The position numbers were made by a program. Source: a virus (Duplodnaviria > Heunggongvirae > Uroviricota > Caudoviricetes). Taken from it: 50,003 nt of DNA. Below, piece by piece: positions 36,001-39,000 of the stretch (the stretch's first letter is position 1; every line of letters begins with the position of its first letter). The stretch lies in the IMG/VR virus record IMGVR_UViG_2609459850_000002, one strand, 5' to 3'.

Positions 36001-39000
36001 CCTGGGAACTAATAAGGCGCTCGAAAAGTGATCGGCTTGTGATTCCGTAAGTTTATCACCTGTCGTTATGCCCTCATGCATTACTAAATGCCCTAATTCA
36101 TGACCTAAATCAGAGCGAAATCTACATATGCTTTTTTTAACATTGTTCCTGATGATAACAGGCCTGTTATTGTGAACAGTAAAAGCATCAACACGATCAT
36201 CGACTCCCGTAACATGCGCAACGATTACCCCTAAACTCTCCGCCAATTTAACCATTGATGATATAGGGCCAAGACCTAAATTCCAGGCACGGCGACAATC
36301 TTCTGCCACTCGCTCAATATCATTCGGAGTAAGTAATTCAGCCCCTGGGTGCTCCGGTATGTTAACGTCAGGAAATTCGATTTCACCTTCAACAGCAGAA
36401 ATTATAATATTAAGAATCTCAGCCCTGGCCAATACACTATTAGTCAGCGTTTGAGTCCTGGACTTCTTACTCCGAAAATGGCAGACATCACTTTCCAGAG
36501 CGTATTTTCGTTCAGTAAAAAGAAAACTGGACTTAATCATAAGCGCTGAAGATATTAACTCAAGACATTGCTCCGATGGCCTGCACCCCTTCTCCAGTTT
36601 GCTAACGAATTGCTTTGTCTTGCCAATTTTTTCGGCTAACTCTTCACAAGAAAGCCCAACAGCCATTCTCGCTAGTTTGAGCTTATCACCCCGATACTCA
36701 GTGAAGTTATTCACCTGATGTTCCATCACTGCTCACATCCAAATCTTTATCCTTCGTACGCCGACGAAGAGGCACCTTATTAATCTCCGCTTCGTCAGGG
36801 AGTGTGTTATAATCAAGAGGCATAAGCGGCATCGATGCTGTAGATTGATGAGAAACTATACTAATCTGAGCACCATAAGTATTAAATCCAACAAGAGCTA
36901 CCTCCCAACGAGGCAGTGTGGACTCTAATTCACCATCGCCCTCTTCGGATAAAAAAGGCTCAGCTATGACTCGCCATGTAATATCTTGCTCAGCCTCAAC
37001 ATCACCAAACAATGAGAGCTGCTCATACTCTACTTTATTTCGACGCAGACGATGTTTCTTTTTGGGGTTATTAATGCAATCTTTGGTAAATTGTAGCGGA
37101 ACTTTATTTAAAGCAACTACATAGTCCAACCCCTTGGAAATCATCTCAAGGCCAGGAATTGCATCTTCATTTTGAATAAGATGATTTCTGACCCAATCAT
37201 AAGCCCTTACACCTTCAGACCAGTTGCTGTCTAATGCGTGCTTATGATAGTACAGCTGCTCAAGTACGTTAGCGATCTCCGCCAACAAGTGGCGAACATA
37301 GTTTTCAGCAAGATAAGGTTGAAATTCCCAACAAGGAGCTAACTGATTTTCATTCATTTCAAGTTTCGCTTTTTTTAGAATTCGTAAACCACATATTTTC
37401 GCATTTTTCTATTTTTGTCAACCAGACTAATGCAAAACCCCGCCGAAGCGGGTTAAGTGCGGGTGCGTTGAGGATGCCTGGCACATCAGAGGTGGCGGGA
37501 GATTACTCCCCCGCCGGGTCTCTTACTCCTCAGGTTCGTAAGCTGTGAAGACAGCGACCTCCGTCTGGCCGGTTCGGATTCGTACCTCGCAGAGGTCTTT
37601 CCTCGTTACCAGTGCCGTCACAATGACGGTTAAACAGATGACGATCAGGGCGATTAGCATCGCCTTTTGCTGCTTCATAGCCTGCTTCTCCTTGCCTTTC
37701 GGCACGTAAGAGGCTAACCTACGTGTGTAGAGCATAGATATGGCCTCAGATTAATGTTAAGCGTCTTGCCGGACGCGTAATGTTAACTGGGGCTTTTCTC
37801 TATCTGCCTTTTGGTGTTCATGCCTGAGACAGATAGCCTCAAGCACCCGCTGCAATTCTACTTAACTCTCCTTTTCCCGCAAACCGTTTTTATCCCCAGC
37901 GGCAAATCGAATACACCACCAGCGCCACCGCCATCGCCATCGCAATTCCTACCGTTGTTAATGCTTCAGGCCAGGTCATCGTAAAATATCCTCCACGCTT
38001 ATCAGTCCGTTCCGCTCCAGATAACTCATCGCCTTATCCGGTAATTTGCAGTCTGGCTTCGCTTTCCTCAGTTGCCAGGTTAACTGCTTTACCAGCATGG
38101 TTAACTCATCGACCAGACGCTGATATCCCACTGGTTTGTATTCATGCAATTTACCGGCTGGCTCTGCTGCCAGCGATACCAGTGCGATTTCCAGAACAGC
38201 AATATCCATCTTATATGTGCGGATGATGTCATGGTCGATTGTGCCCGGTATGCACAGTCTCTGTGCTTCAATAGTCTCCTCTGCGTGAGCTATTAACTGC
38301 TCTCTGGTAAAAGTCGTCATGCCGTAGCCCCTTCTTGATATTTTTCAAACCAGAACACAACCGGCTCTGCTTCCAGCGATGCCAGCGCAATCCGTGCCAG
38401 TTCCATTTGTTCACCACGGGTAAGCCCGTTTTCAAGCGGGTTTTTAATGAACAATTCGATACGTTCTTTGGTAATAGTGGTCATGTGTTACTCCTTAACC
38501 CGCAGTGCTTTCAACTGATGAGGGGAACAAAATCTTTTCATCAAACCCTGCATTCATATCATGGACAGCAACACACCAATCCATTGACGAACGATTATCA
38601 AGAGCCTCCATGATTTCATCCATGCGGCGCAGGTCATACAGGTAAATGCTTTTATCGCCAATGGTGTAAAAACCAATTTTTTTCGGTGATGGACAGCGAT
38701 CAAGAACGTCCTGTAATTCGTTCAACCATGCCTGTTCTTTTTTTGTCAAAGTTGCCATATCAGTTTTCCTTATACGGATTAATTTTATTGTGCAGTGTGT
38801 TGAACGGAGCCCATACCACGTCGTTATACAATTCAATAACTGGCTCAATTATTTTTCCGATTCCCCATACCAGAATTAACGGGGATATCGGTATCATCAA
38901 CACGATAAACAGAATGAGAAACAAAAATTCTGTCGCTCTACTTTTTCGCGGATATTCTTTTCTGAATAATGTAGGCACATCACTCTCCTTTGTTGCTCCT

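Follow-up and report, generated by a model that had tools for sequence, protein, structure and literature searches.

A complete hok/mok/sok-type toxin-antitoxin module predicted in a Qin/Rac-like lambdoid prophage of Escherichia coli

The hok/sok system of plasmid R1 (parB) is the paradigm of a family of RNA-controlled toxin-antitoxin modules. According to the mechanism described for this family, pairing between the tac and fbi elements closes the mRNA while an upstream box hides the mok Shine-Dalgarno (SD) sequence, and trimming of the 3′ end then leads to a tac/ucb pairing that leaves the mok SD open and permits the binding of Sok (PMC9841398). The closest studied relative of the locus presented here is hokW-sokW from the Stx2 phages 933W and Sp5 (AF125520; PMC8621323). 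HokW is reported to be 44% identical to R1 Hok, and both the toxicity and the antitoxin activity of hokW-sokW have been established experimentally, with a dependence on RNase III and Hfq that is only partial (PMC8621323). In Sp5 lysogens, the hokW and sokW RNAs are both present before induction; after addition of mitomycin C the sokW RNA is gone, and HokW appears in a RecA-dependent manner approximately 1 h ahead of the endolysin (PMC8621323). When hokW-sokW was deleted from Sp5, growth arrest occurred about 40 min later and phage release was halved, while the growth of the lysogen was unaffected (PMC8621323).

Here, we analysed a window of 50,003 nucleotides, that is, the whole stretch of viral DNA from the IMG/VR record IMGVR_UViG_2609459850_000002, to which all positions below refer. 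Judged by its sequence elements, the locus under study is a complete copy of the hok/mok/sok RNA-controlled toxin-antitoxin module and belongs to the hokW/hokD type, which is found on lambdoid prophages in the majority of E. coli genomes. Very probably, it constitutes an intact and regulated hok/mok/sok type I module of the hokW/hokD lineage; it is carried by a Qin/Rac-like lambdoid prophage of E. coli, in which it occupies the early-right region, equivalent to nin. The module as such is already known, since the hokW-sokW lineage has been characterised experimentally and hok/mok/sok is well studied, and this copy is real but ordinary.

Reading frames and RNA elements of the locus

The functional locus spans approximately 37431-37882, from the hok promoter (~37882) through the terminator (~37435), and its elements are listed in Table 1. 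A reading made from the sequence alone had placed it at 37523-37760, coordinates that cover the mok/hok ORF but from which the full locus extends on both sides. The Hok peptide (MKQQKAMLIALIVICLTVIVTALVTRKDLCEVRIRTGQTEVAVFTAYEPEE) starts at an internal in-frame ATG at 37678, within a mok-like ORF whose product reads MLYTRRLASYVPKGKEKQA-MKQQKAM... It matched Pfam PF01848 (HOK_GEF) over the entire profile (1-42 of 42) with E=1.2e-23 and 82.9 bits, against a cut-off of 22, while the matches to the NCBIfam Hok models were sub-threshold only (48.5 bits vs a curated cut-off of 73). RefSeq labels the peptide hokD (WP_000813254.1), and it is identical to the K-12-type HokD. The mok-like protein and MokW, as annotated in phage 933W, share 64 of 70 residues (91%), and the mok ATG (37735-37733) is kept in 22 of the 25 aligned relatives. 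The nesting of a Hok peptide in a mok-like frame, which the sequence-only reading had proposed, is therefore confirmed, with Pfam and Rfam matches that go far beyond chance. A chance ORF was considered and dismissed.

Table 1. Elements of the hok/mok/sok-type locus and of the downstream RosmerTA genes in the window
Feature	Position	Strand	Length	Basis and details
Putative hok/mok mRNA promoter	37855..37882	-		Read from sequence; -35 TTGCGG (37882..37877), 16-nt spacer, -10 TAGAAT (37860..37855)
Full-length hok (mok-hok) mRNA	37435..37848	-	~414 nt	5′ end from RF01794 position 1 and conserved GGGUGC; 3′ end from terminator hairpin
tac element, GGGUGCUUGAGG	37837..37848	-		5′ end of mRNA; pairs with fbi in the MFE fold
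ucb-like anti-SD box, AAGCCCCAG	37787..37795	-		Predicted full-length fold; pairs with mok SD CUGAGGC
mok SD, GAGG	37744..37747	-		Sequence; 8 nt upstream of mok ATG, inside the Sok-complementary stretch
mok-like ORF	37523..37735	-	70 aa	ORF list; in frame with hok, stop codon common to both
hok toxin ORF	37523..37678	-	51 aa	SD AAGGAG at 37693..37688; Pfam HOK_GEF
fbi element, CCUCAACGCACCC	37461..37473	-		Complementary to tac
Intrinsic terminator of hok mRNA, CCCGCTTCGGCGGG then T-run	37431..37452	-		Terminator scan
Predicted Sok promoter	37692..37720	+		Sequence; -35 TTGCCT (37692-37697), 17-nt spacer, -10 TAACCT (37715-37720)
Predicted Sok-like antisense RNA	37727..37797	+	71 nt	Predicted; 15-nt single-stranded 5′ tail (37727-37741), hairpin (37742-37794), U-run
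RmrT	36707..37357	-	216 aa	PADLOC E=4.6e-25
RmrA	35623..36729	-	368 aa	PADLOC best E=6.2e-105, 14 models; Pfam HTH_3 and Peptidase_M78

A covariance-model search for hok mRNA and Sok, which had been proposed as a check of the locus, matched Rfam RF01794 on the hok-sense strand at 37848..37673 with 117.1 bits (gathering score 59; E=4e-26; model positions 1-157 of 157). The match extends from the conserved mRNA 5′ end, GGGUGCUUGAGG, to the hok start region. Because this model, named "sok antitoxin", matched the hok strand, it describes the hok mRNA leader, that is, the complement of Sok plus its flanks, and the true Sok gene must consequently be on the plus strand. Upstream of the leader, the -10 of the putative hok/mok promoter sits 7 nt from the conserved 5′ end, and a TAnAAT-type hexamer is found at an equal distance from the 5′ end in most of the 25 aligned relatives. 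A consensus promoter scan missed both the hok and the Sok promoters on account of their weak -35 boxes. The one promoter that the scan called, at 37760..37731 on the minus strand, falls within the leader and was taken as a chance hit (one found, 0.7 expected).

The predicted fold of the 414-nt hok mRNA (MFE -165.7 kcal/mol, z=-5.5) pairs the 5′ end to the 3′ end. Closure is provided by 11 bp in which nucleotides 1-11 pair with CCUCAACGCACCC at 37473..37461, and in the same MFE the mok SD is sequestered (CUGAGGC with GCCCCAG), three of the four SD bases having an in silico probability of 0 of being unpaired. The alternative partner of the ucb-like box is tac (GGG[U]GCUU/AAGCCCC), with 7 bp and one bulge. 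When this tac/ucb open conformer was forced, it lay +11.8 kcal/mol above the MFE in the full-length RNA and +3.9 kcal/mol above it after 3′ truncation, so that it was not the MFE; in these models the energy shift on truncation goes in the right direction and is not decisive. The activating refolding was not reproduced as the lowest-energy state, since in the MFE of the 3′-truncated mRNA (fbi removed) tac folds into a local hairpin and the mok SD stays paired. This local tac hairpin recalls the metastable nascent structure that has been described.

On the opposite strand, the coordinates of the Sok-like RNA were transferred by alignment from the sokW misc_RNA annotation of AF125520. Its start at 37727 lies 7 nt downstream of the -10, the -35 shares positions with the hok SD of the minus strand, and the RNA spans both the SD (37747-37744) and the ATG (37735-37733) of mok. 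The 71-nt RNA was predicted to fold at -28.6 kcal/mol (z=-5.4) into a tail followed by a long hairpin, with UUUU at the end. This architecture was kept in an RNAalifold consensus of the Sok strand from 19 relatives in six genera, with 13 pairs, four of which showed compensatory changes. When the Sok hairpin was tested on the hok-sense alignment, pairing was just 68%, because the G-U pairs of Sok are read as C-A on that strand. The Sok promoter agrees at every base with that of sokW in 933W/Sp5, and the promoter stretch is invariant in the window, 933W and a third phage. Takada et al. (2021) constructed a "pro-less" sokW mutant with primer YO-421, in which protection from HokW was lost and was restored in part by sokW in trans (PMC8621323). 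Comparison of this primer with the wild-type sequence revealed that exactly the -10 hexamer had been altered, from TAACCT to GAGCCG. A cis-encoded Sok-like antisense gene with its own promoter is thus predicted to be present. The sequence-only reading had expected such an RNA on the plus strand over the mok start, at ~37690-37770; the gene was found, but its position is 37727-37797, with the promoter at 37692-37720. The same reading had taken the absence of an antisense promoter as the sign of a decayed and unregulated copy, and TTGCCT-17-TAACCT is present.

Comparison with related and decayed loci

We collected 53 related loci from Escherichia, Shigella, Kluyvera, Citrobacter, Pantoea, Photorhabdus and Erwinia, 25 of which were aligned. 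Across these 25 sequences, the two tac/fbi helices were 94.6% and 89.6% paired, and four of the 12 pairs had changed on both sides. Such compensation was seen, for example, in Kluyvera (GAGA/UCUC), Pantoea (GGGCGC/GCGCCC) and Citrobacter (GAAG/CUUC). The observed values were not reached in any of 500 shuffles, and slid controls were 33-42% paired vs 77% for the whole tested structure.

The locus shares with hokW-sokW of 933W/Sp5 the same architecture and a DNA identity of 94% over ~450 nt, the Sok promoter, the Sok hairpin, the hok SD, tac and fbi being identical. The Hok peptide and HokW are identical at 47 of 51 residues, with a C-terminus that reads FTAYEPEE here and FVDYESEK in HokW. A clear intrinsic terminator follows fbi in the window; it is kept in pPE4 and in three of the related loci (L005, L006 and L007), whereas 933W lacks it. 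The Sok 5′ tail, which flanks the mok start, differs from SokW at 6 of 15 positions; these differences leave the cis-complementarity unaffected, and the kinetics could differ. Among 80 viral-contig copies, the tail presented 11 variants, and that of the window was the commonest (20/80). The tail was also considered as a uniquely hypervariable element from a comparison of four close relatives (Fisher p=1.5e-5), an idea that was weakened when the top of the leader hairpin (37800-37829) proved equally variable in the 80 viral copies.

The family paradigm of plasmid R1 and the locus have in common the tac/fbi closure, the anti-SD box over the mok SD and the translational coupling of mok and hok. 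Likewise, the Sok RNA of R1 and the one predicted here are both cis-antisense RNAs of ~65-70 nt, in which a single-stranded 5′ tail is followed by a hairpin and a U-run. In R1, mok is in a different frame from hok, whereas here it lies in the hok frame and uses the same stop codon; the replicon is a prophage here and a plasmid in the case of R1.

The second close relative is hokD (relF) of the Qin prophage in K-12-type genomes, which encodes the identical 51-aa peptide and has a nearly identical 3′UTR, fbi and terminator (97% between window positions 37692 and 37433). Its place in the prophage, upstream of rem, ydfU (DUF968) and Q, is also broadly the same. However, everything upstream of the hok SD is missing from the K-12-type locus, with relE in its place, whereas the window keeps the promoter, tac, mok and sok. 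Specifically, in the K-12-type relB-relE-hokD locus of our collection (L007), homology starts 16 nt upstream of the hok ATG, leaving it without the hok promoter, tac, mok, the Sok -10 and sok. Other relatives are also defective: tac is mutated in L006, fbi is lost in L016 and the leader is missing from L028. Since degraded relatives are so common and RefSeq names the window copy "hokD", this copy could itself be a decayed or unregulated remnant, like K-12 hokD/relF or the chromosomal loci disrupted by insertion sequences (IS), in which the peptide ORF survives and the regulatory RNA is nonfunctional. We consider this highly improbable, because the window retains the hok and Sok promoters, the terminator, both tac and fbi, the anti-SD box, the SD and start codon of mok, and the hairpin and U-run of Sok, and because carrying the commonest of the Sok tail variants argues for a maintained allele. 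As to whether hok is intact, a point raised in the earlier reading, no element is missing and the locus does not appear to be decayed. The window would thus carry the locus in full and with its regulation, and the name "HokD" in RefSeq accordingly fits the peptide and not its regulation.

Prophage context and the RosmerTA cassette

In E. coli 042, where the prophage adjoins ompW, the gene order on the hok strand begins with ydaS/ydaT-like regulators, the O/P replication genes and small ORFs, followed by hok, the 216-aa ORF and the protein with HTH and M78 domains, and continues with DUF968, RusA, the Q antiterminator, tRNAs, lysis genes and the terminase. The locus therefore lies on the early-right strand between the O/P replication genes and RusA/Q, in agreement with its earlier placement inside a nin-like region. 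In 933W/Sp5, by contrast, the module is found at the attR-proximal end of the prophage, on the leftward strand, and the biological role of hokW-sokW may accordingly not transfer to a module in this position.

The two ORFs downstream of hok overlap and form a two-gene operon, with the RmrT toxin gene followed by rmrA. By its PADLOC matches, this HTH-ImmA cassette, which had been described as defence-like, is a RosmerTA anti-phage system. It is no part of the hok/sok module, having been inserted separately after the hok terminator and ahead of the rem-like gene, and its activity is predicted. The rem-like gene (window 35618-35398) comes directly after the hok terminator in other loci, among them those of the K-12 type, which indicates that the RosmerTA cassette (~37433-35619) is a variable insertion and that the adjacency of hok and RosmerTA is not a conserved pairing. 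In a survey that covered 44,248 Hok homologues, hok was enriched approximately four-fold in prophages but not around defence systems (12% vs 9.4% expected) (bioRxiv 10.1101/2025.08.07.668861). The notion of a small island of addiction or defence functions is hence supported in part: it fairly describes this particular prophage but, given the variable insertion and the lack of enrichment near defence systems, provides no evidence of a functional pairing.

The same data bear on the possibility that the module is intact and serves mainly in abortive-infection defence of the lysogen, forming a small defence island with the adjacent RosmerTA. RosmerTA is located immediately downstream of hok, prophages often carry defence genes and, in the work cited in PMC8621323, R1 hok/sok on a high-copy plasmid brought the plating efficiency of T4 down by 42%. 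Such a main role seems nevertheless unlikely to us: RosmerTA is absent where the rem-like gene directly follows hok, the surveyed homologues are not concentrated around defence systems, PADLOC, which contains no hok model, gave no match for Hok, and the phenotype measured for the closest studied relative is an aid to the release of the prophage itself (PMC8621323).

Proposed mechanism, biological role and value for annotation

By homology with R1 and hokW, the locus would be expected to be expressed and toxic through the following steps. A stable mRNA of ~414 nt would be produced from a weak constitutive promoter and adopt a closed form in which the 5′ tac and the 3′ fbi are paired and the anti-SD box masks the mok SD, so that neither mok nor the coupled hok would be read. 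Slow trimming of the 3′ end would remove fbi and favour the open form. In the lysogen, this open form would be caught by the abundant and unstable 71-nt Sok, transcribed from TTGCCT/TAACCT on the opposite strand, and the resulting duplex over the mok SD and start codon would block mok translation and lead to degradation, partly via RNase III and Hfq. Once the supply of Sok ends, because the prophage is induced or lost or because transcription is shut off, the accumulated mRNA would be translated and the 51-aa Hok would insert in the inner membrane, with membrane collapse.

As for the biological role, the likeliest one by analogy with hokW would be help with lysis and phage release on induction, possibly plus prophage addiction. 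Addiction could also be the main role of an intact module, through post-segregational killing after loss or excision of the prophage, as in R1. This is the activity that defined the family, the 933W annotation reads "prophage maintenance", and the four-fold enrichment in prophages (bioRxiv 10.1101/2025.08.07.668861) would fit it. We regard it as possible but doubtful as the main role, since the hokW-sokW deletion left the growth of the Sp5 lysogen unchanged and the phenotype that was found concerns induction (PMC8621323), and since curing of a prophage is rare relative to plasmid loss.

The placement of the module may itself act as the trigger, an idea that we put forward with low confidence: read-through on induction could occlude the Sok promoter by transcriptional interference. 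In the window, hok is co-oriented with the early-right antiterminated operon and lies directly downstream of it, and the Sok promoter faces this operon head-on. In 933W/Sp5, the module is oriented leftward just beyond attR, so that after excision and circularisation the N-antiterminated pL transcript through int would enter it in the hok-sense direction. The disappearance of the sokW RNA is RecA- and induction-dependent (Takada et al., PMC8621323); read-through interference, if true, would account for it. A weaker companion idea is that variation in the Sok 5′ tail might prevent cross-neutralisation among the hok/sok copies of one genome, which number up to nine.

As a discovery, the locus carries little weight: the family has been studied since the 1980s, its lineage has been characterised, and of 5,426 complete E. 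coli genomes, 3,927 (~72%) have a copy that covers 80% or more of the 451 nt. Genomes with any match have matches at a median of two places and at up to nine. The 4 kb around hok is found at 99.8-100% identity in approximately 150 complete genomes of E. coli, those of strains 042 and ABU 83972 among them, and strain NCCP15648 likewise has the locus at this identity. Its value lies in annotation. RefSeq marks the "HokD" peptide alone at this locus, with neither mok nor the Sok RNA, and pipelines that use the Rfam "sok" model would place the antitoxin on the wrong strand. Altogether, the copy in the window would show the truncated K-12 hokD locus as it was before relBE took over its regulatory half.

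Downstream boundary of the hok locus

The sequence-only reading had described a defence-like 'HTH-ImmA cassette' next to hok, which was identified here as the RosmerTA defence system, composed of RmrT and RmrA. In the window, the inserted cassette falls exactly in the interval that separates the hok terminator from a rem-like ORF, and hok loci of K-12 type, as well as others, lack RosmerTA at this position. The terminator itself is a clean intrinsic one, located directly 3′ of fbi and consisting of CCCGCTTCGGCGGG followed by a T-run; it is shared with pPE4 and the K-12-type loci. 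In contrast, in the comparison with window 37435-37460, the hokW sequence of the Stx2 phages 933W and Sp5, the locus studied by experiment, departs from the window right after fbi, at the terminator, and no equivalent of this hairpin was seen there. Since the hairpin is missing there, the 3′ end of the hokW mRNA may be formed differently from that of the window.

Upstream ORF and other RNA genes

On the opposite side of hok we found an unannotated ORF encoding a hydrophobic peptide of 29 aa, whose start overlaps the stop codon of the upstream 114-aa ORF (ATGA) and whose end is separated from the hok -35 by 7 nt. This ORF is still open in 933W, pPE4 and the related hok locus L005, even though there is an in-frame indel of 2 codons and the upstream genes differ, and its ATG is the exact start of the homology blocks shared with these three loci. 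It is missing from hok loci L004, L008 and L013. Elsewhere in the prophage, Rfam matches revealed further RNA genes, a set typical for Qin-like and P4/Gifsy-like regulatory regions.

Coordinates of the features around hok and of other RNA genes in the prophage
Feature	Position	Strand	Remarks
STnc100 sRNA, two tandem copies	29953-30141 and 30417-30610	minus	Rfam
Two tRNAs	30877-31033	minus	Rfam
rem-like ORF	35292..35513		neighbour on far side of RosmerTA from hok terminator
RosmerTA	35623-37357	minus	RmrT + RmrA
RmrA	35623..36729	minus	368 aa; HTH_3 + Peptidase_M78
RmrT	36707..37357	minus	216 aa
29-aa ORF	37890-37979	minus	hydrophobic; unannotated
DicF / isrK / C4-antisense cluster	46899-47372	plus	Rfam

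Copies, annotation and variation of the locus

The GenBank record 'Actinobacillus phage vB_Apl-pPE4' (PP818812.1) showed 96.6% identity across this E. coli prophage region, and hok was 96-100% identical on tiny contigs (275 and 431 bp) from Acinetobacter idrijaensis and Xanthomonas pisi assemblies. These three records probably reflect a mis-assigned host and assembly contamination rather than real spread.

The match to Rfam RF01794, the 'sok antitoxin' family, corresponds to the sense strand of the hok mRNA (37673-37848), from the tac 5′ end to the hok start region. Annotation pipelines based on RF01794 would assign 'Sok' to the wrong strand, at 2-3 times its proper length.

Among 80 IMG/VR copies, variation was concentrated in two hotspots, the Sok 5′ tail (37727-37741; 11 variants, 2.9 bits) and the top of the hok leader hairpin (37800-37829; 10-14 variants), while the rest of the locus was conserved, with 4 variants in the Sok hairpin arm and 3 in the Sok -35/spacer segment. 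The mok ATG, which lies within the Sok tail, was conserved, and the commonest tail variant was the window's own (20 copies). Diverged Sok tails might limit cross-talk among multiple hok/sok copies.
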